Assembly: GCA_045600865.1 (NCBI GenBank)
Contig: JAZRYS010000168.1
Span: 1,556-65,555, forward strand
DNA from: Candidatus Aphodosoma sp.
GTDB taxonomy: Bacteria > Bacteroidota > Bacteroidia > Bacteroidales > Paludibacteraceae
Direction: 5' to 3'
DNA length: 64,000 bases
The position numbers were made by a program, and so were the translations under genes. Below are positions 24,561 through 59,225 of this stretch, piece after piece. Within the stretch, counting starts at the first letter, position 1; the number at the start of each line of letters is the position of its first letter. The notes under the pieces are model-generated. The model saw nothing but the letters and a program-made list of their open reading frames with translations, was not told the DNA's origin and did no database searches.

Positions 24561-24562
24561 AA

Positions 24563-25531
24563 CTATTCTTCTTCAGGAACTAATTTGAACATATAGCTCA
24601 CATCATTGTCATCAATCAGTGAACGGACATCATACTTGCGAGTTTGTGTATAATAACCTTTCTTGCTTACTTTAACCTCAATCTGCACAAGACCTGAATT
24701 ATTATATGTCAATCCCTTAATATCCAATGCCTCTGTTCCTTCATAAGGAGTTGTTTCCAAATATTTATAATTTTGGTTCTTTACCTCCGGAGTTTTTGAA
24801 ATAACGCGCCATTCAACATCTGCGCCCTGAGGACGTGAATTTATATTCCAATGCACCACCAGATGTTCCAATGCAGTATTGCCTTCTCCTTGCACTTGCT
24901 TGTTCGCCTCTAACTTAGGAGAGCTGGCACGATGAAGGAAAAAGGCTATTCTATCCCAATCCACATCTGCAAGTGCATTGCTATATGCTTTATTCAAAGC
25001 AATGTTAGCAGCCTGATTACTATCAGAAGCACCACTTACATTAGCACGTCCACTCACTTCTACCGTTGGGTAAACCAAAGTGCGATTATGGTCTGAAACC
25101 TTCAGATTCATAATTACCGTTCCAGTCCAACCAATTCCTGATAGATAATCCACGTGAAATTCTTTTAGGTCAACCTGCATCAGATAATCAGTTGCAACAT
25201 CTGCATCTAAATTGAATCCCATTGTGCGCATATATCTGCGCATGCTTTCCGGAACAAACGACGCTATTGAGGGATTAGCTTGAGCTGCAGGAAGAGAAGT
25301 CGCACTTGCGTCAAAAACTTGGATAATGCGCTGATTAGCGCGCACGTCTTGCACATTAAGACGTATTCCGTAATCTAAATTAGCATACTTGTCTGCTTGT
25401 GGGTCACTTACAAGTGCAAGATTGAAAATGCGCACCTGCGGCTGTGTTGCAACCTGCTTACGGAACAAGCTACAAGACGTAGCCAACACTACCACTGCTG
25501 CGATTGCAGCGAATAAAATACTTTTTCTCAT
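24563..25531 (-). CDS. Lipoprotein with a C-terminal PEGA domain, function unknown
   Basis: Lipobox VLATSC. C-terminal NSRPQGADVEWRV...YLETTPYEG...VKVSKKGYYTQTRKY fits the PEGA pattern. There is a 2-nt gap to the next gene. Confidence 0.65.
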   Translation of the reverse strand: MRKSILFAAIAAVVVLATSCSLFRKQVATQPQVRIFNLALVSDPQADKYANLDYGIRLNVQDVRANQRIIQVFDASATSLPAAQANPSIASFVPESMRRYMRTMGFNLDADVATDYLMQVDLKEFHVDYLSGIGWTGTVIMNLKVSDHNRTLVYPTVEVSGRANVSGASDSNQAANIALNKAYSNALADVDWDRIAFFLHRASSPKLEANKQVQGEGNTALEHLVVHWNINSRPQGADVEWRVISKTPEVKNQNYKYLETTPYEGTEALDIKGLTYNNSGLVQIEVKVSKKGYYTQTRKYDVRSLIDDNDVSYMFKLVPEEE

Positions 25532-25554
25532 AAATACATATCATTTATTTATTA

Positions 25555-26097
25555 TTATTTACCATCTGGTTTAATCTTAATAATCTTTGCGCTTACCGTA
25601 GTTCTATATATTATTTCACGGTTGCTTTTTCCCTGTTCTACATTCGTTGAAATCACAGGTTCTATAACGCCATCACCACCTGCAATCTTAGCCGCATTAA
25701 TAAGTCTGTAGATGGCCAAACGACGAACAATCCAATGTGGATATGGAGGTATATTGAATAGCTCTTCATCATAATCATTGCTCAAATACCCTAGACAAAC
25801 AAGTCCCTTAATAGAATTAGGTTCCCACTCTCCCGTTTTATTATTTTTATTCCAAGTTAGTGAGAACTCTCCATCTGGATCTTCCACCTTAACCGAAAAA
25901 TCAGAAAAGTGTGCTGTCAATGAAGCCTCAGCTGTAACCGTATTCACTATAATGTAATCTGTACGCTGCAAATCCAAATCATTGAAAGATATTGATGCAA
26001 CGGTGTTAGTTGCCTGAGGTATTACTGACAATGCACTACGACAAGAAGTCATCGTTATTGCAAGAATTGCAGCAAGAAATAGATTCTTTTTATTCAT
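25555..26097 (-). CDS. Small lipoprotein, function unknown
   Basis: The start is moved to the ATG at 26097, giving MNKKNLFLAAILAITMTSC (lipobox). It is the first gene of the three-gene operon. Confidence 0.6.
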   Translation of the reverse strand: MNKKNLFLAAILAITMTSCRSALSVIPQATNTVASISFNDLDLQRTDYIIVNTVTAEASLTAHFSDFSVKVEDPDGEFSLTWNKNNKTGEWEPNSIKGLVCLGYLSNDYDEELFNIPPYPHWIVRRLAIYRLINAAKIAGGDGVIEPVISTNVEQGKSNREIIYRTTVSAKIIKIKPDGK

Positions 26098-26492
26098 ATC
26101 AGTGTGTTTTAATATGTTGCCTACTCTAAAAAGGATTTTCGGCATACTCCATGTTTTTCTCAGTCCGTTGTTTGACGAGGCACAAAAAGTGGACTAACCT
26201 TTTCTATTCACAATCATAGACATCACCCCATTATGACAGTTTAGCAATTTGAAGATTGTGCAAAACAATGAATAACATCATGTTCTTAGTTGTGCATTTA
26301 GTTACATTTTATCCCATAGGCTTAATTTAATTAATTTTACACAGTTGAATCTATTTACTATGAGACCTAAAACCAATTACAATCAGGTAAAAGCTGAACA
26401 TACCTTATTGCAATCAATCAAAATACGTTTTCTGAGTTTTTGCAAAAGATGGCAAAATCTTTGTCTTGAAAAAAACATCTGATGTCTTTTTT

Positions 26493-26569
26493 GCAAATAA
26501 AAAACGCAGTCCCCAGTTGTCATTCCCTACTTGAAGGTTCTGGTAAACCCATACGACAAGAATGACAAC
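26493..26569 (-). repeat. Copy B of the dispersed element: 10-bp inverted repeat enclosing the conserved 28-nt core, followed by a T-run on the minus strand
   Basis: Arms are 26516-26525 (gttgtcattc) and 26560-26569 (gaatgacaac). The core at 26523-26550 matches 463-490 at 25/28 in reverse complement. The minus strand continues ...ctggggactgcgttttttatttgc. Confidence 0.6.
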
Positions 26570-26700
26570 GTAGCCTGCGCCGATATGTATAACCGCACTC
26601 TTAAGAGCGCATGAATATACATACACCGCAGACATTCATTGATCCCTCTTGCTTCAGGTCGTATAAAAATTTACCAGATTTTCAAGTACCGAAACAAGCG
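26510..26700. repeat. ~190-bp imperfect palindrome centred on CTCTTAAGAG (26598-26607)
   Basis: Reading outward from the centre, the two arms share AAGAGYGC, TATACATA, CGCAG, GTCGTAT, TTTACCAGA and TTCAAGTA in the same order. The right arm is a decayed inverted copy of element B. Confidence 0.6.
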
Positions 26701-26773
26701 TCAATAAACGCCTAAAATATGTCTGCTCGCCCACCCCCTAATGAGAGACCCCACAGGCGCGGGTTTGCGGTTG

Positions 26774-26781
26774 CAAAGGTA
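26774..26781 (-). promoter_or_regulatory. Orphan promoter P1: minus-strand TACCTTTG -7 box with TTTG at -33 spacing
   Basis: Plus-strand CAAAGGTA at 26774-26781. The minus-strand TTTG is at 26802-26805, giving a 20-nt spacer. The 20-mer 26772-26791 is 19/20 identical to 27080-27099. No credible ORF lies downstream for ~670 nt. Confidence 0.5.
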
Positions 26782-26838
26782 GGAATAATTTCTGAACTGG
26801 GCAAATGTTTGGGAAACTTTTTTCAATGATTGTTTATC

Positions 26839-26893
26839 CCAAATCGGTCATTGGGATTTGTCAAGCTCCCTTCATGGCTAATGACCGATTTGG
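26839..26893. repeat. 14-bp perfect inverted repeat (CCAAATCGGTCATT / AATGACCGATTTGG) with a 27-nt spacer
   Basis: Read directly. The left arm plus flank (CAAATCGGTCATTGGGAT, 26840-26857) recurs at 21802-21819 at 17/18. Confidence 0.8.
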
Positions 26894-26926
26894 TTTTAAT
26901 TGATAACTCTCAATTGAAAGGAGGTT

Positions 26927-27017
26927 GCGCCTTCGCTCGGGGTTCGCTCGGTATTCGCTTTTTGACCCCGAGAAGCGAATACCGAGCGAACTCGCAGCGA
27001 ACCTGCAGCGAACCTAA
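26927..27017. repeat. Iteron-like array: three forward TTCGCT and four reverse AGCGAA hexamers phased at exactly 11 bp
   Basis: TTCGCT lies at 26932, 26943 and 26954. AGCGAA lies at 26974, 26985, 26996 and 27007. The inner units form a perfect 19-bp inverted repeat (26942-26960 / 26973-26991). Confidence 0.85.
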
Positions 27018-27081
27018 TGTCTTGACTGTTCAGACCTCTGGAGTGTGAGCCATGAAAACATCCTTCCGCTGAATTGCACTG

Positions 27082-27089
27082 CAAAGGTA
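27082..27089 (-). promoter_or_regulatory. Orphan promoter P2: minus-strand TACCTTTG -7 box, duplicate of P1
   Basis: Plus-strand CAAAGGTA. The surrounding 20-mer is 19/20 identical to P1. It fires toward the iteron-like array. Confidence 0.45.
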
Positions 27090-27195
27090 TGAATAATTTT
27101 TGGTATGGCAATGGGTTGTCAGGACCTTGGCGGAATTAAAACTTGTATTGACTTGTGCCTGTGAGCGTTACAGCGGCTTTGAGATTGAAAATGGG

Positions 27196-27225
27196 GTGAA
27201 AAATGGAGGCAAAATTTGCCTCCAT
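27196..27225 (-). terminator. Putative intrinsic terminator ending the long minus-strand gene string
   Basis: ATGGAGGCAAAATTTGCCTCCAT (27203-27225) forms a stem of 8 bp or more. It is followed on the minus strand by TTTTCACCCCATTTTC, 49 nt after the stop at 27274. Confidence 0.6.
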
Positions 27226-27273
27226 CGTTGTCATCCGTTTATAACCTTATAGTAATAAATGGCTTTTGATGTC

Positions 27274-28731
27274 TTATTTTACCTTCAGGTCGTAGCCGTA
27301 TATCGTGTTGCTGCTTGGTGCAGTCCAGAAATGGCGCAACACACCATCGATGATAACGTCTTTACTGTCACTATCACCGTCATAGAGAATTGGCACGTCA
27401 ATCTTGATGTCTTTCTCGACCTGTGCCTCGCCCTTTTCAATGTCAATCCATGCCTTATAGAGGTTAACATTCGAACCAGAAAGAGGTGTATTGACGAAGG
27501 TCATCAGTATGCGTGAATCGTCAGTTGTAACGAGTTTCGTCATATTTGACATAATGCTGCCTTTCGGAACCATTACCAACTGCTTGCCATCACCTTCGAA
27601 GTCCTTGTTTCCTGTCTGGTCAACAGTCTGCAGTGCTGTATATGCCTCAACACCGTTGGCATCAGACCATACGCATACGAGTTTGTGGCTGTTCTTGTCT
27701 AATGTGGCATACACATTCAAATATCCTGTACTGCAGCCAGTAGGGAGTATGTCAACTTCGCCAAAGCCGTTTGTCTTGCCATTTGCATCAAAATGATAGG
27801 CATAAGCTTTCAGAAGGGTGGATTCTCCGACTTTGCAGACAACGTATGCACCCCCGAGACCATCTTCGACAATCTTTGGACGGAAACCTAAAGAATAGAT
27901 CCTGTTGCTCATCAACAGTTCCTGACTCTGAATCGTTCCATCAGCCGAAATTTTAATGACATCAACATAGCCATCGATTTTTGCTTCGGTTGAGCCACCT
28001 CCGACTGGGTCGGCATACTGTACAATCATCAGCAAATCATTGTTTGAATTCACGAACATCTGTGGATTGCGGATATGACTCTTTGCTCCAGACGAGCCGT
28101 TGGCTGGGTCGAACAAGATAGGGTCTGTCACCATATTGCCCTCGCTATTGACACGAGCTACTGCCATCATTGGACCTGCACAAGCGGCAGCAACCCACGC
28201 ACCTCCGTTATTATCGGCAGCTACAAAGCCTTCGCATGGTGTAATGTTGGCATTTTCACCGAAATCGTAAAACAGTTTGCCATTCTCGCCCCATGCGAAA
28301 GAGCCGTCTGGACGTATCATCGTAATGTATGGGTGCATTATGTCACCGCTATCGCCCTTGGCACTATAGACATCTATCACATTGCCCTCGGTGGTAATGT
28401 CGAATACTGTTGTGCTTACCCAACTTATTGCTTCGCGTTTTGTCATCTGTATCCAATTGCTCCATTTTGCCTTGCCGTTGGCATCAACACACTGCATAAA
28501 TGGTACATAACAATCTTTGCTGACTTCAGCCCAGCTTTCGATGTAGGTACATTTGCTTTTGACATCCGATTTGTACAGCATTGCATCCATAACAAAATTG
28601 TCCAAGACAACGTAAATCTTGTTCTCTTCGACAGGCTTCGGTTCTACAGGATTATCTTTTTTGCATCCAACCAGACCTAAGACAAGGATTGATACTGATG
28701 TCAGCAAGTATCCAAGATTAATTTTTTTCAT
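27274..28731 (-). CDS. Lipoprotein, function unknown (possibly beta-propeller-like)
   Basis: Lipobox LVGC. 485 aa, with repeated G/D/N-rich beta-strand-like segments. I recognise no catalytic motif. Confidence 0.6.
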   Translation of the reverse strand: MKKINLGYLLTSVSILVLGLVGCKKDNPVEPKPVEENKIYVVLDNFVMDAMLYKSDVKSKCTYIESWAEVSKDCYVPFMQCVDANGKAKWSNWIQMTKREAISWVSTTVFDITTEGNVIDVYSAKGDSGDIMHPYITMIRPDGSFAWGENGKLFYDFGENANITPCEGFVAADNNGGAWVAAACAGPMMAVARVNSEGNMVTDPILFDPANGSSGAKSHIRNPQMFVNSNNDLLMIVQYADPVGGGSTEAKIDGYVDVIKISADGTIQSQELLMSNRIYSLGFRPKIVEDGLGGAYVVCKVGESTLLKAYAYHFDANGKTNGFGEVDILPTGCSTGYLNVYATLDKNSHKLVCVWSDANGVEAYTALQTVDQTGNKDFEGDGKQLVMVPKGSIMSNMTKLVTTDDSRILMTFVNTPLSGSNVNLYKAWIDIEKGEAQVEKDIKIDVPILYDGDSDSKDVIIDGVLRHFWTAPSSNTIYGYDLKVK

Positions 28732-28787
28732 ATTTATGTTTGATTTATTGGATTTGCGTAATGAAGACTTTTGCTGCCTTCAGAAAG

Positions 28788-29561
28788 TCATTGACGAAAT
28801 CTGTAAGTAATAGTGCCAGACACTGGCGAATTTCCCGAAGTGAACGTATTCTTCTTTGCAGCTTCCATGGCAGCTTCAATCACCTTTGCTGACTTGATGG
28901 TGGTTCCAGAACCCTTGATGGCATCAACCACCTTTCCACTTGCATCTATCCGTATAGCAATGACGACAACACCTTGCTCGCTGCCTGAATATGAAGGTTC
29001 TGCCAACTGACCTTTCAGGGTACGCCCGTTCACAGACCACAATCCATCCACTTTTTCGTTATCCACAAATGCATCTCCGGCTGACGGATTATTGACTTCG
29101 AGTGTGCCAAAGTCTCTCATTGCGTCAAAAATCTTGTTGCACAACGGTGAATCATTGCATTTGATGCTCCATTCCTCAATCAGGAAAGGATATTTCTTGC
29201 CTGTCGTGCCGTTCTCTTCAGTCATCTCAATACCCTCTTCGCATACCATCTCTATAGTGCTGTTTTTTCTGGCGATAGTTGTCTTTGACAGGTCTATCCT
29301 CACTGTATAGGTATTGTATTCACCCATGTCTATGTCAGCTACAGCACTATTATGAACGACATAGACAACAGTCAGCATAACGCCATCAAGCGTCACTTTC
29401 TCAACACTCTTTGGTATTCTGTCGTCATGCATCTTGCATTCCTTATAATACGGCAGTCTGACTGATTCTGTGTAAGTGGTCAGCAGGCGTTGCAGTTCTG
29501 CCTGGGCAGACATTCCTGCCGCACATGCGAACAGGGTGATGATAAACAATATTCTTTTCAT
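28788..29561 (-). CDS. Secreted protein with a TonB C-terminal-like domain
   Basis: The start is moved to the ATG at 29561, giving MKRILFIITLFACAAGMSAQ. The C-terminus QGVVVIAIRIDASGKVVDAIKGSGTTIKSAKVIEAAMEAAKKNTF resembles the TonB_C fold pattern. The ATG overlaps the upstream stop (ATGA). Confidence 0.55.
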   Translation of the reverse strand: MKRILFIITLFACAAGMSAQAELQRLLTTYTESVRLPYYKECKMHDDRIPKSVEKVTLDGVMLTVVYVVHNSAVADIDMGEYNTYTVRIDLSKTTIARKNSTIEMVCEEGIEMTEENGTTGKKYPFLIEEWSIKCNDSPLCNKIFDAMRDFGTLEVNNPSAGDAFVDNEKVDGLWSVNGRTLKGQLAEPSYSGSEQGVVVIAIRIDASGKVVDAIKGSGTTIKSAKVIEAAMEAAKKNTFTSGNSPVSGTITYRFRQ

Positions 29562-29905
29562 AGATACTTCACTCCATGTTTGTTCAACCATCTTTCCTCG
29601 CATTTGCGACGTTGGCCCTCGTTATGGGCTCTTTTTCGCGTCGCTTTGTACTGGCGTTCGCCAACCTCTTTGGCATAGCAAAGCACACCTTTATCGTTCT
29701 CAACGACAATCCAGCCGTCCAGAGTTATGTTGCAGTGCCAATGCTCGTCGCCTATTAGACGTATCATAACAGTATCGCCTTTGTCGGGCTGAACCTTTGC
29801 GATTGGATATGGGGCTGCGGGAACTCTCTGTGGGCCACGTCTCTCCTGGCCGAATGCAAAGACACTGGCAGCCAGCAAGGCTATCAATACAATACTTTTT
29901 CTCAT
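29558..29905 (-). CDS. Stand-alone paralogue of the N-terminal module of the adjacent M6-type proteases
   Basis: It has a signal peptide and DTVMIRLIGDEHWHCNITLDGWIVVENDKGVLCY. This aligns with STVRVRLAGDEFFSYMVTEDGRIV, STIEAELVGDEYHHCYKSLDGFIV and TTVEAELVGDEFWHGMVTREGMLL in the three proteases. There is no protease domain. Confidence 0.6.
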   Translation of the reverse strand: MRKSIVLIALLAASVFAFGQERRGPQRVPAAPYPIAKVQPDKGDTVMIRLIGDEHWHCNITLDGWIVVENDKGVLCYAKEVGERQYKATRKRAHNEGQRRKCEERWLNKHGVKYL

Positions 29906-32277
29906 AATATTTTGATAAAATAAATACTTTCTGGAGCATCAAATTCCATTACGTCACTTTCGGCATCACGTGTCATGAGAACACGTCCCATGCCATCTAT
30001 CACCATCACTCGCATTCCTTCTTTCAATCTCTCAATTCTTACCTTTCCGCCTATCACCTTTTCTCGGATAATCACAGGCTCATCCTCATCATCCTCAACT
30101 TCAACCACAGAGACAGGAGCCTTCTCTCCGCAGATATGGATATCACCGATACTGAAAGAATATATGTCAGAACTGAATCTAATCTTGGCATTTGGCTTCA
30201 CGTCATACAGAGTCACCCTGACAATATTAGTTCCCTTTGTTGCCAGTGGATACTCTGACGAATATCCATCTTCCGACATGATACCGAAATACGACCTTGA
30301 TTCCTGTGAGAGAATGAAAGCCACCTCTATGTCACCCTGCAATCCAAGTTCAGGAGTGATAAAGTATCCTTTCTCAGAATCATTTCCTACTTTCACCAAC
30401 CCAACATTTGATTCAAGGATGTTTCCTGTCCAGCCTTTGTTCTCAGTATAAGCATCGATATTCTGGGTGATGTTTATGCCTCTGCTGTTACCGATATTCT
30501 TGAATTGTTCTGTAAAACAGTCGCCATAATAATCTTCCACTATTGAACCATCTTTCCTGTACACAGCAAAAAGAATTGTGTTTCTCTTTGGATGGTACGT
30601 AGTTCCTGCATTGTCGATTTTCGAACTGTTCCCGGTCATTGATTCACACCATCCGACAAATTCATATCCATCATCAGCTGTCACGGAAGGAAGGATTACT
30701 CCTGCATATACCGAATCTTCAGTAAGTACTGTAGTGTCGGCTATGCCGAATCCTCTGTCGTCAAATGTCACCGTGAAAGGTCCTTTAGGTGCCCCGCCTT
30801 TTGCATCGAAACTGATGATATCGCCTGTTTCCGTTATGCTTGTCAGTGGATAATCAGTATATGGAGTGAATGTGGTGACGTGACGTGTTCCAGGGAATGG
30901 GTCGCTTGCGGATCCGTCCGTATTGGTGGAATTTCCAGCCTCGACAATATCAACCACCATGTCGTGTGGGTCGTTGTTTGCCTCGTTGCCATACCATTTA
31001 CTTGCATCCCATCTGATTTTCTCGACAAGCATGCCGTGTCCGGGCACGTAGCTGTCCCATGATTTATTCTGTCTGTTTTCAAGCACATAATATTCATCAG
31101 GCACAGGATTGTCGAAATCATAGTTGAATTCTCCTGTGCTGGTTATTATATATCCCTCATGACTGCTTAAGGTATAGTCCATTACATAGCTCTCGGAAGT
31201 TGATATTACAGGCGGGTTGAACCATCCCAATGAAAATCTCTCGAAAGTGGAATATCCCGCTGGGGTGTGTTCGTCGTTGAGATAGTTTCCGCTGCACATC
31301 AAATCCCAACTGCCAACTGTCTTATGGTCAGAGGAGTAATCAGTAACATATAGGTCCATGAGTCCCAACAGGTGAGAAAATTCATGACAGAAAGTTCCAA
31401 TGCCGCACAATGATGTATAGCCTTCTGGTCCTGCCAATTCAGAGGTGCAGCCATAATCATAAAGTTTCTTTCCTCCGAAAGTCAGTTCACTCTTGCTGTC
31501 AGCATCAGTGTTGCTTGTACTGACGACCCATCTGTGTGGCCAGATATAATTACTGTTGTTTCCGGAATAATTCTCGCCGCATCCTGCAAAGTAAATGAAC
31601 ACATTTTCGATGTAGCCGTCATTGTCGCCATCGTAATTTGCGAAATCCACGTTTGCGCTATTGTCTGCAGCCAGTTTTCTGACAGCATCAAGTACCATCT
31701 GTGCAGGGCGAGTGTCGTTGTCATAACTGGAAGGTGCTCCGTAATATGCAGTGTTGTGATCCAGGGTATATGGTCCGAAAACGTCGAAGTCAGGGCTATA
31801 GACACCTCCTGAATTGTCGGTGAAATACTGTTTTACCGACCCTGTTGCACCATAATTGCTGTACCCATTCTGGTTCAGCAGGTTATCGAATTCTGTTCTC
31901 GGATATGTGAAAGATTGGTCGCTGAAGTTAACAAGTATCACCAGGCATCTGGAATATGCACCACTACTTGTCTTTGCGGGCATCCTGCGCTGGTTCTCCT
32001 TCATCATCAGTCTGCTCATCTTGCGTCTGGCAGCGATGTATCTGGCACTCATATCCTCTTCGTTCATTCCTGTCTCCACCATCACGCCGCCCTGTTCTTT
32101 GACTATGCGTCCGTCCTCCGTCACCATATAACTGAAAAACTCGTCTCCAGCGAGTCTTACCCTCACGGTGCTTCCGTCGGCCATGAGTTTTTCCACATAC
32201 TGGTTATTGGCTGGCACAGACCATGCCATCGTGGCACCAAACAATGCGAGCACCAAACTGAATACAACCTTTCTCAT
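29902..32277 (-). CDS. M6 (immune inhibitor A-like) family metalloprotease with a T9SS-type C-terminal domain, paralogue 3
   Basis: Signal peptide. Zinc motif FCHEFSHLLGLMDLY (HExxHxxGxxD). Tail PVIIREKVIGGKVRIERLKEGMRVMVIDGMGRVL..IYFIKIL. Confidence 0.75.
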   Translation of the reverse strand: MRKVVFSLVLALFGATMAWSVPANNQYVEKLMADGSTVRVRLAGDEFFSYMVTEDGRIVKEQGGVMVETGMNEEDMSARYIAARRKMSRLMMKENQRRMPAKTSSGAYSRCLVILVNFSDQSFTYPRTEFDNLLNQNGYSNYGATGSVKQYFTDNSGGVYSPDFDVFGPYTLDHNTAYYGAPSSYDNDTRPAQMVLDAVRKLAADNSANVDFANYDGDNDGYIENVFIYFAGCGENYSGNNSNYIWPHRWVVSTSNTDADSKSELTFGGKKLYDYGCTSELAGPEGYTSLCGIGTFCHEFSHLLGLMDLYVTDYSSDHKTVGSWDLMCSGNYLNDEHTPAGYSTFERFSLGWFNPPVISTSESYVMDYTLSSHEGYIITSTGEFNYDFDNPVPDEYYVLENRQNKSWDSYVPGHGMLVEKIRWDASKWYGNEANNDPHDMVVDIVEAGNSTNTDGSASDPFPGTRHVTTFTPYTDYPLTSITETGDIISFDAKGGAPKGPFTVTFDDRGFGIADTTVLTEDSVYAGVILPSVTADDGYEFVGWCESMTGNSSKIDNAGTTYHPKRNTILFAVYRKDGSIVEDYYGDCFTEQFKNIGNSRGINITQNIDAYTENKGWTGNILESNVGLVKVGNDSEKGYFITPELGLQGDIEVAFILSQESRSYFGIMSEDGYSSEYPLATKGTNIVRVTLYDVKPNAKIRFSSDIYSFSIGDIHICGEKAPVSVVEVEDDEDEPVIIREKVIGGKVRIERLKEGMRVMVIDGMGRVLMTRDAESDVMEFDAPESIYFIKIL

Positions 32278-32287
32278 AATTTTTCTT

Positions 32288-33970
32288 TTATTCTATTCTT
32301 ATAAAATAGACCACTTCGGGAGCATCAAATTCCATGATGTTCTCTTCGGCCGTCTTCTGCGTCAATATGCGACCTGTGGCGTCAACCACTTTGACAGTCA
32401 TCCCTTCTTTGAGACGTTCTATTCTTACTTTGCCGCCTATTACTTTTTCCCTGATTATAACAGGTCCGTCTTCTTTTAAGACTTCTTCGACACTGGCTGT
32501 CACACCTAATGTAAAACTTATTTGTCCGTTGGACTCACTAATCTGACTCAACGCATAATTTGAGTATGGGTTAAACGTCCTTACCATGCTGGTTCCTGGG
32601 AATGGGTCGCTTGACGAAGTATAATAATATCCGCCATATTTCTGATCTCCTCCTGCAGCTACAACAACACAGCCGAGACTTGATTTGTTATTGTTTACTG
32701 TATTGTTTTCCCATTTCGAGGCACTGAAGTTTATTTTCCATACCAACATGCCGTGACCTGGCAGATAGGCATCCCAGCCTGACTTTTGTCTGTTCTCAAG
32801 CAGGTAATATTGCTTGGGCGACGGATTGTCTGGTCTCAGGTTGCTTTTTCCAGTAGAGGTTATCATGTATGCCTGTCCATTACCTGTATTCACATTGCTT
32901 AACGTATAGTTCCCCGACTGGTTCAGTACCGTAGGAGTAAGCCATCCGACATAAAATCTCTCTTGTGCTGAATATACAGGAGGTGTGTTCATGTCGTTGT
33001 TGTAGCATCCGCCATCCATGATGTCCCATTCTCCCGGTGTTGCCCATCTGTAACTATAGTTTGTGTCGTATAAGTCTGGCAATCCCAGTACGTGCGAGAA
33101 TTCGTGACAGAAGGCACCAATGCCGTTTCTTGTCGTTCCGTATGTGCCAGCCAATTCGCTTGAGCAGGCATAATCGTACAGAGTTTTTCCGCCATAGGTG
33201 ATTTGCCCAGTGACATCGCTACTGAAAATATAAAACTTGTGCGGCCATATAGTGTTCTCGCTGGCTCCTGCGCTCTCAGCATATCCGGCATAGAAGATGA
33301 ATACGTTGTCCACATATCCGTCGTTGTCGCAATCGTACTGCTGCAAAACATTCTGCCCTTCGGCCGCCACCATTTTTTCCACCGCATCGACAACCATCTG
33401 GTCGGCATGTGCATCATTTCCCCGAGAATCATTCTGACCATAATAACTCATATTGCGATCCAAAGTGTATGGACCGTAAACATCAAATTCCGGATTGTAT
33501 TTATTGAATGAGCAGGCTTTGAAATAATCTTTGGCAGAACCCGTGGCACCATTATAATTGTAGCCTTGCTGGTTCATCATGTTTGTAAAGGATTCATTGG
33601 TGTGGGTGAAGGCCTTGTCTTTGAAAGATACCAGAATGACTAATCCTTTTGACGCATAGTTGGTAGTTGTCACATCGATGCTCTTAGGCTCAATGGGGGC
33701 TTCCTGACGTGCCTTTGCCATCTGACGCATAGACGAGACTTTCGCTGCATCGTATCTCTCGTCCGTCTTGACATAAAAATTGTCCTCGGTCTGTCTAACG
33801 ATAAACCCATCCAGAGACTTGTAACAATGGTGATACTCATCACCGACCAGTTCAGCCTCAATGGTTGAACCGTCTCTTGTTACTAATTTCATGACTCCTG
33901 GCTTTGCAGGAATTGCCCATGCGGCTGCTGCCACCATAGCAATGGCGAAAACTAAAAATATCTTTTTCAT
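32288..33970 (-). CDS. M6-type metalloprotease with a T9SS-type C-terminal domain, paralogue 2 (short form)
   Basis: FCHEFSHVLGLPDLYD. Its tail is nearly identical in protein sequence to paralogue 3 (PVIIREKVIGGKVRIERLKEGMTVKVVD). It lacks the ~230-aa middle region of the other two. Confidence 0.75.
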   Translation of the reverse strand: MKKIFLVFAIAMVAAAAWAIPAKPGVMKLVTRDGSTIEAELVGDEYHHCYKSLDGFIVRQTEDNFYVKTDERYDAAKVSSMRQMAKARQEAPIEPKSIDVTTTNYASKGLVILVSFKDKAFTHTNESFTNMMNQQGYNYNGATGSAKDYFKACSFNKYNPEFDVYGPYTLDRNMSYYGQNDSRGNDAHADQMVVDAVEKMVAAEGQNVLQQYDCDNDGYVDNVFIFYAGYAESAGASENTIWPHKFYIFSSDVTGQITYGGKTLYDYACSSELAGTYGTTRNGIGAFCHEFSHVLGLPDLYDTNYSYRWATPGEWDIMDGGCYNNDMNTPPVYSAQERFYVGWLTPTVLNQSGNYTLSNVNTGNGQAYMITSTGKSNLRPDNPSPKQYYLLENRQKSGWDAYLPGHGMLVWKINFSASKWENNTVNNNKSSLGCVVVAAGGDQKYGGYYYTSSSDPFPGTSMVRTFNPYSNYALSQISESNGQISFTLGVTASVEEVLKEDGPVIIREKVIGGKVRIERLKEGMTVKVVDATGRILTQKTAEENIMEFDAPEVVYFIRIE

Positions 33971-33976
33971 AATGCT

Positions 33977-36370
33977 TTAATTTAAAACTACTGCAAAGGA
34001 ACAACCTTTCCTTCTAACTTCAATGACGTACAGACCTTGACCTCCGTCGAACACGAATGAACTGCCAGAAGCCTGCTTGTCAATTATTATCTTTCCTGTC
34101 ATGTCCATGACTCTGACATTGTCGCCCTCTTCCAATCCATAGACTATTCTGTCCGAACCTTCTCTCACGACAACTATCTCTTCGGTTGTCTCAACATCTT
34201 CTACTGGCGATTTCTTTGCACCACAAAATTCAATGTTGTCAACATAGAATATATTGGCTTCACATTGAATGGTGATTCTTGAATCGAGCTGTACGTTATA
34301 TAGATGGAACACATAGTCATCATAATTCTTGCTTATCAGGACAGTGTCTGTTGCCATGCCGGAACTTATAATCATATTAGTGGCAATCAGAGCCTTTGCC
34401 CTTACGGTGATTGTCATGTCTCCGGAAAGTCTCATGCTTGGTGTCACCAGCTTGCCTGCCTCATCGTTGTTTCCGCACTTGGCTGCACCATTGTCGCAGA
34501 ACACCTTTATTCCGTTCCAACCTGTCCAGTCGGCATATTTGTCTATCTTGTCAGAAATTTCAGTGTTCTTTGATTTTGTCAAGCCGTCGAACGTTTCGGT
34601 TGCACACCCTGTTTCGGTAGGCACGATTCTGCCTCCCTGAGAATATACAGCAAACAGTTCAATATCTCCCTCAGGATAATATGTCTCTCCTGGCAACCCG
34701 GCTGAAACCTCTGCTGCCGAAGATGATTCGCACCATCCTTCGAACTTGTATCCCTTGAAGACATTGCTTACGTTTGGCAGCACTACCCCTGCACCTATAC
34801 CGCTTTCAATGAGTTCCTGAGTGCTGCAGTCTGCTCTTCCCATGGCGTCAAAATTGACTTTGAAATACTGCCTTCCGCCTTTGTATTTGAACTTGACAAT
34901 GCCAAAGTCATCCTCAATGTCCGTCAATGGCTGACCGTCGTATGGAGTATATGACGTTACATTGCTTGTGCCTGGGAATGGATCACTTGCCTGGGCATAA
35001 TAGCCATGCACTCCGTCTGCCTCGATGATGTCAACTCCCATGTCGTGACTGTCATTGTTTACTGTATTGCTGTACCACTTATATTCATCGTAACTGACTT
35101 TGGTAATGAGCATACCCCCACCTGGCAGATAACTGTCCCATCCTTTCAGCTGTCTGCTTTCGAGCAGGAAAAACTCAGAAGGATTAGGGTCGGCACCATT
35201 CAGGTTATGGTGTTCTGTTGAAGAAATCAGATAAGCCTCTCCCTGACCGTTGTTGATGTCGTCAAGCGATATCATATCTGGTTCGCTCAGCACTGTTGGC
35301 TTCAACCACCCGAGATAGAATCTCTCGTATGCCGAATATGCGGGTGGTGTGTGTTCATTGTTCAGGTAGTTGCCGGCATCCATCACGTCCCAGAGCGAGC
35401 ATGTCCTGTGTCCGGAATAACCAGTATCGTACATGTCTGGCAAGCCAATGACGTGTGAGAATTCGTGGCAGAATGGACCAATGCCGCTCATGGTTGAGCC
35501 GCTGTTGCCGCTGAGCTCGCATGTGCAGGCGTAATTGCCCAATGTCACACCTCCGTATGTTGTGGTTCCATCAACCCAGCTTTCATAGACATACGACTGA
35601 TGCGGCCAGATGGTGGTTGAACCTCCTCCTGCATTCTCGCCATATCCTGCATAGAATACGAACACGTTGTCAACATATCCGTCATTGTCGCAGTCATATT
35701 GCCTGAACACGTTGTTGCCTTGGTCTGCAGCAAGTTTTGCAGCTGCATCTGCTATCATCTGCGCTGCATTCTGGTCTGACCCCTGACCACCATAGTTCTT
35801 GCCGTAATATGAGCAGGTATTGTCCAGCGTATAAGGTCCATAGACATCAAATGTCGGATTGTATTTTCCGTATGAGTTGTTCTGGAAATATTGCTTCACT
35901 GAGCCTGACTTATTGTTGCTTGGACCTGTCTCTTCGTTCATCATGTCGTCGAAGGCCGCATTTGTCTTCGTGAAAGCCTTGTCGGAGAAACTTACCAGTA
36001 TCACCAGCACTTTTCCCGGGAATTTCATGTCGCCGATACCCATTGGCTTCATATTGTCTTCCTTGCCCACCGAGCGTATTCTCTTATATTCAGCTTCTCT
36101 CTGTTTCAGAAGACTTTGTGCCCTCATGGCAGCAATATCGACATTTGCAATGTTCTGATTTGTCACTTCAAACAGACCTGGTTGGACTTCACGCAGGAGC
36201 ATTCCTTCCCTTGTTACCATTCCATGCCAGAATTCATCACCTACCAATTCTGCCTCAACCGTGGTTCCATTAGTTTTCTTTACTTCGAACCAACCTCTCT
36301 TAGCTGGAACTCCCCAGCAGGCATTAATGATGCTTAATGACATTAACCCTGTTAAGAATAACTTTTTCAT
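33977..36370 (-). CDS. M6-type metalloprotease with a T9SS-type C-terminal domain, paralogue 1
   Basis: FCHEFSHVIGLPDMYD. Signal peptide present. The ATG overlaps the stop of the upstream AI-2E transporter gene (ATGA). Confidence 0.75.
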   Translation of the reverse strand: MKKLFLTGLMSLSIINACWGVPAKRGWFEVKKTNGTTVEAELVGDEFWHGMVTREGMLLREVQPGLFEVTNQNIANVDIAAMRAQSLLKQREAEYKRIRSVGKEDNMKPMGIGDMKFPGKVLVILVSFSDKAFTKTNAAFDDMMNEETGPSNNKSGSVKQYFQNNSYGKYNPTFDVYGPYTLDNTCSYYGKNYGGQGSDQNAAQMIADAAAKLAADQGNNVFRQYDCDNDGYVDNVFVFYAGYGENAGGGSTTIWPHQSYVYESWVDGTTTYGGVTLGNYACTCELSGNSGSTMSGIGPFCHEFSHVIGLPDMYDTGYSGHRTCSLWDVMDAGNYLNNEHTPPAYSAYERFYLGWLKPTVLSEPDMISLDDINNGQGEAYLISSTEHHNLNGADPNPSEFFLLESRQLKGWDSYLPGGGMLITKVSYDEYKWYSNTVNNDSHDMGVDIIEADGVHGYYAQASDPFPGTSNVTSYTPYDGQPLTDIEDDFGIVKFKYKGGRQYFKVNFDAMGRADCSTQELIESGIGAGVVLPNVSNVFKGYKFEGWCESSSAAEVSAGLPGETYYPEGDIELFAVYSQGGRIVPTETGCATETFDGLTKSKNTEISDKIDKYADWTGWNGIKVFCDNGAAKCGNNDEAGKLVTPSMRLSGDMTITVRAKALIATNMIISSGMATDTVLISKNYDDYVFHLYNVQLDSRITIQCEANIFYVDNIEFCGAKKSPVEDVETTEEIVVVREGSDRIVYGLEEGDNVRVMDMTGKIIIDKQASGSSFVFDGGQGLYVIEVRRKGCSFAVVLN

Positions 36371-53724: not shown

Positions 53725-53779
53725 AATAGTTATTTATTTTGTAATTTTTATTAAAGAGAAAATGGTCAATAATTTTTTG

Positions 53780-53787
53780 CAAAATTA
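53780..53787 (-). promoter_or_regulatory. -7 box TAATTTTG (minus strand) for the TPR lipoprotein gene
   Basis: Plus-strand CAAAATTA, 56 nt upstream of the start at 53724. Confidence 0.4.
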
Positions 53788-53812
53788 CAACAAATAATCG
53801 AATTATAATTGC

Positions 53813-53820
53813 TAAATTTG
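53813..53820 (+). promoter_or_regulatory. -7 box TAAATTTG (plus strand), 327 nt upstream of mnmG
   Basis: Matches TAnnTTTG. It is the only full match I see on the plus strand between 53725 and 54147. Confidence 0.35.
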
Positions 53821-54147
53821 CAAAAATATTCAGATAAACGATATTTTTTTATTAAATACTTGATTATAAATTATTTATATAGATATTGTTTATTAGTTAA
53901 GTACTTTTCATTATTCAACATATATTACTTATAATCTAAATTTGAATCATCTATATTTATTATATATGTTGTTAGTAATGTTGAAAAGTATGTTTGGCTT
54001 TTGATTTATATCTTATTAGGTTGTTCAATTTTATGTTTAAATTACTGTGTATTTAAAGGACATGTTGTTTATAAGTGTTGTTTTAAACCTTGTTTATTAC
54101 CTTTTCAACATATTTTGAACACATGTTAGTCACCATTGTTAATAAAT

Positions 54148-56022
54148 ATGAGGTACGATGTTATAGTAATAGGTGCAGGACATGCCGGTTGTGAGGCTGC
54201 TTCAGCTGCTGCTAATTTAGGTTCAAAGACATTGTTGATAACAATGGATATGAATAAAATTGGGCAAATGAGTTGCAATCCTGCTGTTGGAGGCATTGCA
54301 AAAGGCCAAATAGTGCGTGAAATTGATGCTTTGGGAGGCCAAATGGGTATAGTGACTGATATGTCTTCCATACAGTTTCGTATGTTGAATATGTCAAAAG
54401 GACCTGCTATGTGGAGTCCACGTGCACAATGTGACCGTACTAAATACATTGACAATTGGAGAAGAATTTTGGATGGTATTCCGAATCTTGATATATGGCA
54501 GGATTGTGTTACAAAACTTACCATTATAGATAGTGTGGTTGCAGGAGTAGAGTGTGCTATGGGAGTCAAGTTTGAATCTACAACTGTTATTCTTACTGCT
54601 GGAACCTTTCTTAATGGATTGATGCATGTGGGTTCTCATAAATTCGAAGGAGGAAGAATATCTGAACCTTCTTCGTATGGTTTGACGGAACAGCTTATAA
54701 ATATCGGTTTCAAGTCTGACCGTATGAAGACGGGTACGCCTATGCGAGTAGATGGAAGCACTATTGATTTCAGTAAAATGCAGCGTCAAGATGGTGATTA
54801 TGAGAATGTTAGATGCTTTTCTTTTCTTCCTGGAAACCGTAATTCGTTGATACAGAGACCTTGTTGGATCACTTATACAAACAATGCTACTCATGAGATA
54901 TTGAAATCTGGCCTAAAGGATTCACCTTTATATAATGGTCAGATAAGGAGTATTGGTCCTCGTTACTGTCCTTCAATCGAAACAAAAATAGTTACATTTG
55001 CTGACAAGGATCAACATCAGTTGTTTATTGAGCCTGAGGGAGAAACTTCTGAAGAATACTATATCAATGGTTTTTCTTCGTCTTTACCTATAGATATTCA
55101 GTTTGCAGCCATTCATACAGTAGCTGGGTTGGAAAATGTAAAGGCTTATAGACCTGGTTACGCTATAGAATATGATTATTTTGACCCGATGCAGTTGCAT
55201 CATACTCTTGAGACAAAGATTGTAAAGAATCTATATTTTGCAGGTCAGGTGAATGGTACTACTGGTTATGAAGAAGCAGCTGGCCAAGGTTTGGTTGCTG
55301 CCATCAATGCTCACCAAAGATGTGTAGGAGGTGATGATTTTATTCTTTCTCGTTCTGAATCATATATTGGAGTGCTGATTGATGATTTGGTGAACAAAGG
55401 AGTGGATGAGCCTTATCGTATGTTTACATCACGTGCTGAATATAGGATTCTTTTAAGGCAAGATGATGCTGATATGCGACTTACTGAAAAATCTTATAGA
55501 CTTGGTCTTGCCACTGAGGAGCGTTATAATATAATGTGTTGCAAAAGGGGTGCCATTGAAAGAATAATTGATTTTTGTCGGAATTATTTGCTGAAGCCAG
55601 ATTTGCTTAATGGCTATCTTTCTTCTGTTGGTTCTTCGCTTGTTGACCATACTGTGCATTTATATGATATGGTTTTACGTCCGCAGGTTTCGATGTCTGC
55701 TCTACTCCACTCTTGCAATCTTATCGAAAGATGTAGAGAATTGACTGAAGGTTCTTGTTTTGATGAAGTCATAGAGGCAGCCGAAATACAGATTAAATAT
55801 GCAGGATATATTGCAAGGGAAAAACAATTGGCGGATAAATTGTCAAGACTTGATTACATCAAGATTCCTTCATCTTTTAATTATGAGGAACAGCAGTCTC
55901 TTTCAACTGAAGCAAGGCAGAAGTTGACACGTATTAGACCTGCAACGATAGGCGATGCTTCTCGTATCCCTGGAGTATCTCCTAATGATGTTTCAGTGTT
56001 GTTATTATTATTAGGGAGATGA
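54148..56022 (+). CDS. mnmG: tRNA uridine-5-carboxymethylaminomethyl(34) synthesis enzyme MnmG (GidA)
   Basis: MRYDVIVIGAGHAGCEAA FAD motif. About 624 aa. The start is moved from TTG 54136 to ATG 54148. Confidence 0.92.
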   Translation: MRYDVIVIGAGHAGCEAASAAANLGSKTLLITMDMNKIGQMSCNPAVGGIAKGQIVREIDALGGQMGIVTDMSSIQFRMLNMSKGPAMWSPRAQCDRTKYIDNWRRILDGIPNLDIWQDCVTKLTIIDSVVAGVECAMGVKFESTTVILTAGTFLNGLMHVGSHKFEGGRISEPSSYGLTEQLINIGFKSDRMKTGTPMRVDGSTIDFSKMQRQDGDYENVRCFSFLPGNRNSLIQRPCWITYTNNATHEILKSGLKDSPLYNGQIRSIGPRYCPSIETKIVTFADKDQHQLFIEPEGETSEEYYINGFSSSLPIDIQFAAIHTVAGLENVKAYRPGYAIEYDYFDPMQLHHTLETKIVKNLYFAGQVNGTTGYEEAAGQGLVAAINAHQRCVGGDDFILSRSESYIGVLIDDLVNKGVDEPYRMFTSRAEYRILLRQDDADMRLTEKSYRLGLATEERYNIMCCKRGAIERIIDFCRNYLLKPDLLNGYLSSVGSSLVDHTVHLYDMVLRPQVSMSALLHSCNLIERCRELTEGSCFDEVIEAAEIQIKYAGYIAREKQLADKLSRLDYIKIPSSFNYEEQQSLSTEARQKLTRIRPATIGDASRIPGVSPNDVSVLLLLLGR

Positions 56023-56033
56023 TATGGGATATA

Positions 56034-56049
56034 TGTTCCACGTGGAACA
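56034..56049. promoter_or_regulatory. parS-type ParB binding site TGTTCCACGTGGAACA (centre of a perfect 22-bp palindrome, 56031-56052)
   Basis: 14/16 match to tGTTtCACGTGaAACa, and the two differences are symmetric. It lies 12 nt after the mnmG stop. Confidence 0.65.
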
Positions 56050-56079
56050 TATGGTGTTCGATTTTTTTTTTTGATTTTT

Positions 56080-56095
56080 TGTTCCACGTGGAACA
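56080..56095. promoter_or_regulatory. Second parS-type site TGTTCCACGTGGAACA (centre of a perfect 22-bp palindrome, 56077-56098)
   Basis: The 16-mer is identical to the first site and lies 46 bp downstream of it. It is separated from it by a T11 run (56062-56072). It lies 15 nt before the uvrC ATG. Confidence 0.65.
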
Positions 56096-56109
56096 AAACG
56101 ATAAATGCT

Positions 56110-57897
56110 ATGGTTAATTACTTAGATCTCCCTTCGTCACCCGGTGTATATAAGTTCTTCAATGCCGACGATAAAATTATATATGTCGGTAAAGCGAAGA
56201 ACCTGAAGCGTAGGGTCTCTTCATATTTCACCAAAACACATGATTCGCCTAAGACAAATATCCTTGTTTCGCATATCAAAAGATTGGAATATATTTGTGT
56301 CGATACTGAGGCGGATGCCCTGTTGCTGGAAAATAATATTATTAAGAAATACCAGCCCCGGTATAACATACTGCTGAAGGATGGCAAGACTTATCCTTGG
56401 CTTTGCATTACTAAGGAAGATTACCCAAGAGTTTTCAAGACAAGGGTTGTAAGCCGTGGAGCAGATTATTTTGGTCCATATCCAAGCACCTACACTCTTG
56501 ATTTACTACTGACGCTTATTCAGGATATTTTTCCTGTGAGAACTTGTAGACTGCCTATTAACGAAAAGTCTGTGGACGATAACAGATATAAAGAGTGCCT
56601 GCAATATCATATTCATCGATGCAATGCTCCTTGTGTAGGCCGTCAGTCGAAGGCGGATTACAACCGAATGATTGACCAAATAAGGGATATTGCAAAAGGC
56701 AATTCTCATTTGGTGACAGACTATCTTCTCAAACAAATGCACGAATTAAGCGAGCAGCTGAAATTTGAAGAAGCACAGGTTCTGAAACGACAATACGATG
56801 CAATAGTCAATTATCAATCGAAAACTGTTATAACAACAACTTCCGATTCGGACATTGACGTGTTTGGTTATGACGAGGACGATGCAAGTGCGTTTATAAA
56901 TATCCTGAGAATAAATAATGGTTCGGTCGTTCAGGGATATACTATCGAATATAAAAAAACACTTGAAGATGAAACCAGAGAGGAGATATTGTCTTTAGCT
57001 ATAGTTGAACTCAGGGATAAATTCAAGAGTGTCTCTTCTGTAGCCATAGTGCCTTTTCTTCCGGATACAGATATAAAAGGTGTTGATTTCATCGTTCCCC
57101 AGCGTGGCGATAAACATACACTTTTGCAGTTGTCGCAGAGAAATGTTGCTCAATACAGAGTTGACAAATACAAACAGGCAGAACGTTTGAATCCTGAACA
57201 GCGACAGGTGCGGCTGCTTACTGAAGTGCAGAAGAAGCTGCATCTCGAAACACTGCCTCGTACTATCGACTGTTTCGATAACTCAAATATATCTGGCACT
57301 GATGCTGTGGCAGCGTGCGTGGTCTTCAAGATGGGTAAACCATCGAAGAATGACTATAGAAAATATATAATAAAAACTGTTGTAGGTTCTGACGACTATG
57401 CCTCCATGGCAGAGGTGGTGAGACGTCGTTATAGTAGATTTATTGATGAATCCATCGCTCTTCCAGACCTTATCCTGACAGATGGAGGAAAAGGGCAGAT
57501 GGAGGTAGTAAGGAAAGTTGTTGAAGACGAACTTCATCTCAAGATACCAATAGCAGGTATGGCCAAGAATGAGCATCACAGAACAAACGAGATACTTATC
57601 GGAACCCCGCCAATCGTCGTTGGAATGGGCCTAAAAGATGAAGTTTTCCAGTTCTTCACAAGAATACAGGACGAGGTACATCGCTTTGCAATCTCTTTCC
57701 ATCGCGACAAAAGGTCAAAGAGCCAGACCCAATCGGAACTTGATACTATTCCTGGTATAGGAAAAGTGACGAAACAGGCTCTTTTACAGCACTTTAAGTC
57801 GTTAAAAAGAATTAAACAGGCTGATATTCAAGAACTTATACAAGTTATAGGCAAATCAAAGGCAAACATTATAAAGAATTATTATAATAAAGTATGA
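56110..57897 (+). CDS. uvrC: Excinuclease ABC subunit C
   Basis: GIY-YIG motif (PGVYKFFNADDKIIYVGKAKNLKRRVSSYF), a UVR domain and a C-terminal HhH. The start is moved to the ATG at 56110. Confidence 0.9.
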   Translation: MVNYLDLPSSPGVYKFFNADDKIIYVGKAKNLKRRVSSYFTKTHDSPKTNILVSHIKRLEYICVDTEADALLLENNIIKKYQPRYNILLKDGKTYPWLCITKEDYPRVFKTRVVSRGADYFGPYPSTYTLDLLLTLIQDIFPVRTCRLPINEKSVDDNRYKECLQYHIHRCNAPCVGRQSKADYNRMIDQIRDIAKGNSHLVTDYLLKQMHELSEQLKFEEAQVLKRQYDAIVNYQSKTVITTTSDSDIDVFGYDEDDASAFINILRINNGSVVQGYTIEYKKTLEDETREEILSLAIVELRDKFKSVSSVAIVPFLPDTDIKGVDFIVPQRGDKHTLLQLSQRNVAQYRVDKYKQAERLNPEQRQVRLLTEVQKKLHLETLPRTIDCFDNSNISGTDAVAACVVFKMGKPSKNDYRKYIIKTVVGSDDYASMAEVVRRRYSRFIDESIALPDLILTDGGKGQMEVVRKVVEDELHLKIPIAGMAKNEHHRTNEILIGTPPIVVGMGLKDEVFQFFTRIQDEVHRFAISFHRDKRSKSQTQSELDTIPGIGKVTKQALLQHFKSLKRIKQADIQELIQVIGKSKANIIKNYYNKV

Positions 57898-59225
57898 ATT
57901 TTTCTAAGGCTTATTGGACGGTGAACTTTGCCGAAATGCTGGAACGCACGGCATATTATGGTATTTTCATCGCAATTACTTTCTATCTGTCAAACCTTCT
58001 TGGCTTTTCGGATATTGAAGCAGGTATTATTTCCGGTCTCTTTTCTGCTACCACCTATTTTCTTCAGATGTTTTCGGGTGCGTATGCCGACAGGCTGGGT
58101 TATCGCAAGTCGTTGCTGCTTGCATTTGGGTTGATGCCTATTGCCTATTTTTCGCTTGGCATACTACCCTACCTTTATCGTGACTTCGGTGAAATCTACC
58201 GTTGGCTGATAGTTCCGGTAATGCTGATTCTTGTTTTTACAGGTTCTATAACCAAGAGTATCATACGTGCTTCTGTTGCACGTGAAACAACCACCGAAAC
58301 TCGTGCCAAAGGATATTCAATATTCTATATGATAGTGAATATTGGTGCATTCAGTGGAAAATCAATAATCGACCCACTCAGAAGCTTTACGGGTCAGAAT
58401 GCCTACATTTACGTTAATTTCATATCTGCAGGTCTTTGTCTGTTAGCCTTCATAACAACATATTTCTTGTATGATTCTGTTCATACAGCAGGCGAGGGGA
58501 AATCGTTCAAGGAGATTGGTCAAGGAATGGCGAAATTATTCACTAAACCTCGATTGATTGTGCTTATTCTGATAGCTGCAGGCTTCTGGACTATCCAGCA
58601 GCAGTTGTATGCCTCAATGCCGAAATATGTAGTCCGTATGGTTGGCGAATCTGCAAAGCCAGGTTGGATTGCAAATGTAAATCCGCTGGTTGTGGTTTTG
58701 TTGGTCAATGTCGTCACTTCTTTCATGAAGAAACGTTCTGCTCTCACCTCCATATTCATCGGTATATTGCTTGTTCCTGTTGCTGCCCTGATAATGTCAA
58801 CAGGTACGTTTTTAGGTGATCAGCCAATACTCGGTTTGCATCCTGTAACTCTGATGTTGGTTATTGGAATCATGTTGCAGGGATTGTGCGAGTGTTTCAT
58901 AACTCCTCGTTATCTTGAGTATTTCTCGTATCATGCGCCTAAAGGTGAGGAAGGTCTCTATTTGGGTTTCAGCCAGATGGATTCTTTCTTTGCATCACTG
59001 ATAGGCTTTTTCATGTCGGGATTCCTGCTCGACAGATATTGCCCTGACCCTGCCAAGTTTGCTACACACCAAGAGTGGCTTGCTGCCTCGGCACATGCAC
59101 ATTATATCTGGTATTATTTTGCTGCTGTTGGTTTGGTGGCTGCTCTTACACTTGTCATTTTCAGTTTTGTAACCAAGAGAATTGACGCTAAGAAAGAATT
59201 AGAGAAAACAATGGAAAAACAATGA
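57894..59225 (+). CDS. MFS transporter of the POT/PTR (di-/tripeptide:proton symporter) type
   Basis: FAEMLERTAYYG fits the ExxER(F)xYYG POT motif. About 12 TM segments. The ATG overlaps the uvrC stop (ATGA). Confidence 0.7.
   Translation: MNFSKAYWTVNFAEMLERTAYYGIFIAITFYLSNLLGFSDIEAGIISGLFSATTYFLQMFSGAYADRLGYRKSLLLAFGLMPIAYFSLGILPYLYRDFGEIYRWLIVPVMLILVFTGSITKSIIRASVARETTTETRAKGYSIFYMIVNIGAFSGKSIIDPLRSFTGQNAYIYVNFISAGLCLLAFITTYFLYDSVHTAGEGKSFKEIGQGMAKLFTKPRLIVLILIAAGFWTIQQQLYASMPKYVVRMVGESAKPGWIANVNPLVVVLLVNVVTSFMKKRSALTSIFIGILLVPVAALIMSTGTFLGDQPILGLHPVTLMLVIGIMLQGLCECFITPRYLEYFSYHAPKGEEGLYLGFSQMDSFFASLIGFFMSGFLLDRYCPDPAKFATHQEWLAASAHAHYIWYYFAAVGLVAALTLVIFSFVTKRIDAKKELEKTMEKQ
58275..58290. 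promoter_or_regulatory. Intragenic parS-consensus site TGTTGCACGTGAAACA
   Basis: Exact match to TGTTNCACGTGAAACA. It lies inside the POT transporter CDS, 2.2 kb from the palindrome pair. Confidence 0.5.

Follow-up and report, generated by a model that had tools for sequence, protein, structure and literature searches.

Genes and palindromes of the window

The window (the whole 64-kb stretch of DNA that was analyzed) contains two perfect palindromes in the spacer between mnmG and uvrC, together with a parA–parB operon that lies 54 kb from them. The relevant features are the following:

659–1447, + strand: parA, encoding a Soj-type ATPase with a deviant Walker A motif, MGKIFAIANQKGGVGKTT (Pfam AAA_31, 4e-72, and CbiA/ParA); start codon ATG 659
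1437–2321, + strand: parB, chromosomal-type (Pfam ParB_N, HTH_ParB and ParB_C)
54148–56022, + strand: mnmG (gidA; Pfam GIDA, 3e-157); the listed open reading frame starts from TTG 54136, and the first ATG is at 54148
56031–56052, unstranded: perfect palindrome ATATGTTCCACGTGGAACATAT, with the core TGTTCCACGTGGAACA at 56034–56049; predicted parS site 1
56062–56072, + strand: T11 homopolymer between the two sites, polymorphic in length
56077–56098, unstranded: perfect palindrome TTTTGTTCCACGTGGAACAAAA, with the core TGTTCCACGTGGAACA at 56080–56095; predicted parS site 2
56110–57897, + strand: uvrC (Pfam GIY-YIG and UvrC domains), without a specific link to the sites
58274–58289, unstranded: candidate third parS, TGTTGCACGTGAAACA, which matches TGTTNCACGTGAAACA exactly and lies inside an MFS transporter gene

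A preliminary description of this DNA reported two perfect 22-bp palindromes with an identical 16-bp core, which was confirmed by the sequence itself and by a repeat search. The two core copies are both exact TGTTCCACGTGGAACA and are 46 bp apart, with a chance expectation far below 1, and the repeat search showed that the 16-mer is the only part common to both copies, their flanks being different. Site 1 starts 12 nt past the mnmG stop codon, while the second palindrome, which ends at 56098, indeed lies 11 nt before the uvrC start codon; this ATG at 56110 yields MVNYLDLPSSPGVYKFF and the GIY-YIG domain. The 3-bp palindromic extensions, which bring each copy to 22 bp, vary among relatives, even in the 92%-identical locus L001, which indicates that the functional unit is the 16-mer. 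Hence, both 22-bp palindromes are real, but the arms of 3 bp on each side, which are not kept in relatives, were rejected as part of the site.

The search of the window with the TGTTCCACGTGGAACA core, allowing up to three mismatches, gave four matches, including the two exact ones, versus 0.23 expected, and the degenerate consensus TGTTNCACGTGNAACA gave three matches versus 0.34 expected. All three consensus matches are located inside 2.3 kb, and none was found in the remaining 61.7 kb. The half-site GTTCCAC occurs 13 times in the window versus 7.1 expected, which is not significant, and 4 of these 13 occurrences come from the two full sites.

The core TGTTCCACGTGGAACA is identical to the parS2 and parS3 sites of Pseudomonas aeruginosa, which are perfect palindromes with experimentally shown ParB binding of the highest affinity, and a single one of the four oriC-proximal sites of this bacterium (parS1–parS4, including parS2 and parS3) is sufficient for segregation (PMC4368675). 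The same sequence has also been given as the parS of P. putida, with TGTTNCACGTGAAACA as the general chromosomal consensus (PMC7022226). A parS is expected to be a 16-bp inverted repeat of the TGTTNCACGTGAAACA type or of its TGTTCCACGTGGAACA variant, and the spacer contains two exact copies of the latter.

The operon of parA and parB at 659–2321, which had also been described before, was borne out by the Pfam domains and the translations. The parA gene, which extends to 1447, overlaps the start of parB at 1437, and hence ParB has a ParA partner in its own operon. The domains of ParB correspond to an N-terminal CTP-binding domain, a parS-specific helix-turn-helix and a C-terminal dimerization domain, and the N-terminal domain contains the CTP motif at the sequence level, as GERRYRA and ENIQREDLN. 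The closest solved structures are those of Caulobacter, Myxococcus, Helicobacter pylori, Bacillus subtilis and Thermus ParB/Spo0J proteins, with E values of ~1e-48 to 1e-50.

To describe the DNA-contacting residues, the window ParB was aligned to Caulobacter ParB 6T1F, in which the published numbering equals the chain index plus 10. The parS-contacting residues Q151, G159, K160, R162, N167, G190 and R193 are kept in the window ParB. In this alignment R162 and G190 correspond to Caulobacter R173 and G201, as is expected of a parS-specific protein. The specificity quartet reads R-Y-E-G, which belongs to the RXXG class, whose conservation among ParB orthologues has been called absolute, while Noc has QKKR. 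A binding site of Noc would be a ATTTCCCGGGAAAT-type palindrome accompanied by a QKKR protein, whereas the window has the bases of parS in its palindromes and R and G in its ParB. One departure was observed at K161, which occupies the position of Caulobacter S172, a residue conserved in ParB and Noc.

A DUF5683 gene (window 2318–3052) overlaps the parB stop codon in an ATGA-type arrangement. Its product has a signal-peptide-like N-terminus and hydrophobic segments, and it is apparently a Bacteroidota-specific, co-operonic partner of parAB.

Conservation and placement of the sites in related loci

Related loci were recovered with UvrC (42–92% identical), and gene positions in them were mapped by tblastn. 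The 54 loci, which total 453 kb, belong to metagenome-assembled genomes of Paludibacteraceae, Candidatus Aphodosoma and other gut Bacteroidales, and the nearest of them is L001 (92%). The data showed that they contain 47 sites matching the strict consensus, versus 0.005 expected from block shuffles. Each of these 47 sites is located within the mnmG–uvrC–MFS neighborhood, and none in the unrelated flanks. A site with two or fewer mismatches lies no more than ~130 nt past the mnmG stop codon in 34 of the 39 loci that cover the 3′ end of mnmG, and in most relatives the orthologous site is 0–45 nt, often 0–20 nt, past this codon. The spacer around the sites is unalignable, with flank information of 0.1–0.8 bit per position, and these 34 of 39 loci thus present conserved DNA with diverging flanks. 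Conservation in the mnmG–uvrC spacers of relatives, which had been proposed earlier as a check, was therefore found, the sites being kept and anchored to the mnmG stop codon. The number of sites per relative is between one and four, and a second paired site is present in L001, L003, L004, L017, L020, L022–L029, L046, L051 and L056, with a start-to-start spacing of 29–93 bp.

The variation among the sites is confined to positions 1, 5, 8, 12 and 16, which are those known to be degenerate in parS. The other 11 of the 16 positions, including those of GTT.CA and TG.AAC, are invariant at a UvrC identity of only ~50%, although this invariance is inflated by the selection of sites by pattern. The identity of the core to validated sites, the class of the ParB, the conservation in relatives and the non-dispersed occurrence in ~0.5 Mb of related DNA all support the preliminary proposal that the palindromes are parS sites and that the parAB operon of the window is their cognate operon. 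Hence, from the sequence evidence it is very probable that both palindromes represent parS centromere sites on the chromosome of a gut Bacteroidales bacterium of the Paludibacteraceae/Candidatus Aphodosoma group.

The closeness of site 1 to the mnmG stop codon, 12 nt in the window and 0–45 nt in relatives, could also suggest that the palindromes are RNA elements, either terminator hairpins of mnmG or part of the 5′ leader of uvrC, with the likeness to parS being incidental or reflecting a dual role. The RNA of the 98-nt spacer was predicted to fold with −29.4 kcal/mol (z = −4.9), and the T11 run follows the first palindrome. However, this strong fold is the trivial pairing of the two identical palindromes with each other, and a scan for terminators did not find a stem with a T run at either palindrome, the T run being located 12 nt beyond the stem. 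The search of Rfam returned no family at threshold, but only sub-threshold hairpin noise. An intrinsic terminator would have a G+C-rich stem–loop followed immediately by a U run, and its pairing would be kept in relatives, which is not the arrangement in this spacer. Instead, it is the bases at the invariant positions that are kept, and asymmetric variants such as TGTTCCACGTGAAACA break the pair; the asymmetric combination of C and A at positions 5 and 12 was observed in six sites. The occurrence of such C5/A12 sites argues that the sequence is conserved, and not a hairpin or base pairing. We consider it quite improbable that the palindromes are RNA elements.

The location of the second site, 11 nt before the uvrC start codon, is typical for an operator, and a promoter scan found no consensus promoter in the mnmG–uvrC spacer, which raises the question of whether the palindromes could bind another dimeric protein, such as a uvrC or DNA-repair regulator recognizing a CACGTG-centered inverted repeat. 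On the other hand, relatives often have between the sites and uvrC a gene that we take to be apt, judging from its N-terminal sequence MTIEEVK..., and where this apt-like gene replaces uvrC downstream, the sites still adjoin mnmG. Additionally, no site was found near or upstream of uvrC in any of the seven loci in which mnmG is not nearby (L013–L015, L018, L019, L047 and L048). Since the sites track the mnmG stop codon whatever gene is downstream, and are absent at uvrC away from mnmG, there is no support for a dedicated role of the sites in regulating uvrC. There is exact agreement between the parS consensus and the motif with its tolerated variants, and the window itself encodes a ParB that matches, which makes it highly improbable that the sites are an operator of another protein. 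As regards the earlier suggestion that ParB loading or spreading could affect the expression of uvrC, an incidental effect of this kind could still exist; repression by ParB at intergenic sites is known from parS3 and parS4 of P. aeruginosa, although it was not seen in B. subtilis.

Finally, we give hardly any credence to the view that the palindromes belong to a dispersed REP- or MITE-type repeat or are a non-functional local duplication, for which two identical copies close by and an array of the same core in an unrelated contig could speak, as the other 61.7 kb of the window contain no further copies, the 453 kb of related loci contain none outside the mnmG–uvrC–MFS neighborhood, the 16-mer alone and not the flanks is common to the two copies, and the position is kept across order-level divergence. 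The many spread copies with repeated flanks that characterize REP and MITE elements were found neither in the window nor in the 54 loci. The unrelated contig, L055 (JAEEGL015142655.1), was the one match of a metagenome scan with a 23-mer, while the scan with a 28-mer gave no matches. Its positions 1–730 contain at least nine copies of ATGTTCCACGTGGAACA with a period of ~60–64 bp. A GTGTGGAAC half-site stands in front of most copies, and two larger repeats of ~416 bp contain the array, which resembles a multi-parS centromere of the plasmid or phage type built on the same core.

The T11 homopolymer between the two predicted parS sites had been described as slippage-prone and able to change their helical phasing. 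Exact-protein look-ups for other strains gave no match for UvrC and MnmG, while the look-up of the MFS protein gave one conspecific contig, L056. This contig is 99.66% identical to the window over 4.76 kb and differs by a single indel, the tract being shortened to T8 and the two sites thus lying 3 bp closer; all three sites are kept. The tract in L001 is T9. Hence, the length of the tract is variable, unless the differences are homopolymer assembly errors, and the part of the earlier claim that concerned slippage is consistent with the T11, T8 and T9 variants. The part that concerned phasing is unsupported, because the spacing of 29–93 bp among paired sites in relatives, together with the T8 tract in the conspecific contig, indicates that helical phasing is unconstrained. 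Such a wide tolerance of spacing fits independent loading of ParB at each parS.

The candidate third site at 58274 encodes the invariant peptide SVARET. It is kept in 11 of 14 relatives, in 10 of them exactly and in L012 with one change at position 1, while synonymous changes erase it in L002, L004 and L011. The synonymous positions flanking the site vary in relatives; however, many of the 11 relatives that keep it belong to one clade, and the codons are possibly just the preferred ones. The position in a coding sequence and the exact TGTTNCACGTGAAACA match are as in the B. subtilis parS family. The origin of this site is ambiguous, as it could be a true parS or a by-product of a conserved peptide and codon bias.

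Two further variants of the motif were observed in relatives. In one Paludibacteraceae lineage (L020–L024, L026 and L046) one or both of the mnmG-downstream sites have the sequence TGTTCCATGTGGAACA, in which the central CpG is changed to TpG and the dyad is lost, always in the same orientation (for example in L022, at 3271 and 3312). Several contigs of this lineage carry the labels Segatella, Leyella, Flexilinea or Erysipelotrichaceae, apparently through mis-binning. Three Porphyromonadaceae-type loci, in which uvrC does not have mnmG upstream, instead have a parS with one mismatch, CGTTNCACGTGGAACA, directly past the uvrC stop codon (L041 at 5751, L042 at 5757 and L050 at 5751).

Predicted role of the sites and comparison with known parS systems

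According to the established ParABS model, each 16-bp core would be recognized by a dimer of ParB (1437–2321) through the helix-turn-helix. ParB would then bind CTP at GERRYRA, close as a clamp and slide to neighboring DNA, while the partition complex would be moved by the ParA ATPase (659–1447), and the origin-proximal domain would be organized in this way. The two sites would load ParB independently of each other and not as a phased pair, and their position would be inherited with the 3′ end of mnmG and not with a uvrC promoter. Hence, ParB binding and spreading at the window sites, as well as their role in segregation, are expected by analogy with this model.

The sites of P. aeruginosa and P. 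putida have the same 16 bp, and, like those in the window, they are perfect palindromes that are intergenic and form a small cluster. In both cases a chromosomal ParA–ParB pair is encoded in the same region. On the other hand, the Pseudomonas species are Gammaproteobacteria, while the window comes from Bacteroidota, and the arrangement is different, with parAB ~7 kb from oriC in Pseudomonas, and two sites 46 bp apart, straight after mnmG and with parAB 54 kb off, in the window.

The window sites also belong to the same consensus family as the parS of B. subtilis Spo0J (consensus TGTTNCACGTGAAACA), and Spo0J and the window ParB share their CTP motif and their architecture of three domains. The two main sites differ from the B. 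subtilis consensus by C/G at positions 5 and 12, in both arms. It is common for parS to be located in parB or to adjoin it, and B. subtilis has a parS inside spo0J, in contrast to the window, where no site is present in or beside parB. The pan-bacterial parS family was reportedly surveyed by Livny et al. in 2007.

The parS sites described here almost certainly represent a well-known type of element and not a new one, and, being ordinary centromere sites of one more uncultured genome, they do not bring a conceptual change. The order-wide placement of the predicted parS after the 3′ end of mnmG, away from parAB, would be a modest new point. The sites and their conserved position could serve as a landmark of the predicted ParB-loading region in gut Bacteroidales, and probably also of the origin domain. 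Experimental work on ParB and parS in gut Bacteroidales was not found in the literature that was searched. For ParB ChIP-seq or binding assays in cultured relatives, the exact 16-mer could be a ready-made probe.

Position of the sites relative to a possible replication origin

The genes parAB, dnaN, gyrB, topA and mnmG are all located within 56 kb, and the window also contains obg and recG, while dnaA was not found in the 64 kb. An origin-proximal location of the sites, as proposed in the preliminary description, is plausible. The sign of the GC skew flips together with gene orientation at ~14.6 kb and ~53.9 kb, and since the skew follows the gene strand, the proximity of an origin cannot be shown from 64 kb. 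In the same order, clusters of consensus-predicted parS of Bacteroides caecimuris coincide with the origin domain defined by Hi-C, and the origin is not always at dnaA (PMC10197239, in its available text). The available text of this study does not contain a sequence-level or synteny account of the sites, and the anchoring to the 3′ end of mnmG is not described in it.

Two spacers of the window could be considered as candidate origins, and either of them would be 2–37 kb from the parS sites. The first is the spacer at 53725–54135, which is 410 bp long, has 15–20% GC, and is placed at the switch of gene orientation between a divergent TPR lipoprotein gene (− strand) and mnmG (+ strand). It is similarly AT-rich in close relatives. 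No canonical DnaA boxes were found in this spacer, which contains an inverted pair of TTTTCAACA, at 53979 (− strand) and 54103 (+ strand), and this motif is about tenfold enriched upstream of mnmG in relatives. The spacer may be an origin or an unwinding element, but it may also be no more than a promoter region. The second is the 177-bp spacer at 18990–19166, upstream of the gyrB–dnaN operon, in which DnaA-box-like motifs form a cluster at 19.0–19.1 kb, consisting of TTATCCATA at 19032 and 19052, TTTTCCAC near 19064, and TTATCCGAA near 19100. A perfect TTATCCACA is also present at 18832, inside gyrB. This cluster could belong to a DnaA-regulated promoter or to part of the origin.

It is conceivable, if rather doubtful, that the Bacteroidales centromere is anchored to the 3′ end of mnmG and uncoupled from parAB (54 kb), and that in Paludibacteraceae/Aphodosoma it lies ~2 kb from a dnaA-unlinked origin in the spacer 53725–54135, with TTTTCAACA replacing the canonical DnaA boxes. 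If this were true, origins in metagenome-assembled genomes of Bacteroidales could be located simply by the combination of mnmG and parS. With regard to the organization of such chromosomes, the Hi-C study reported, in its available text, that homologues of the known bacterial condensins were not found in its two Bacteroidetes species, one of which still aligns its chromosome arms (PMC10197239).

Other features were observed in the part of the window between the gyrB–dnaN spacer and mnmG. The open reading frames at 19167–29603 have no Pfam or NCBIfam matches, with the exception of a HATPase_c_4 domain at 21854–23386, and the GC content within this region is lowered to 0.38–0.42 at 22–28 kb; the region may be an acquired island. 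Farther on, at 29902–36370 (− strand), there are three tandem paralogous genes with M6 (immune inhibitor A-like) peptidase domains.
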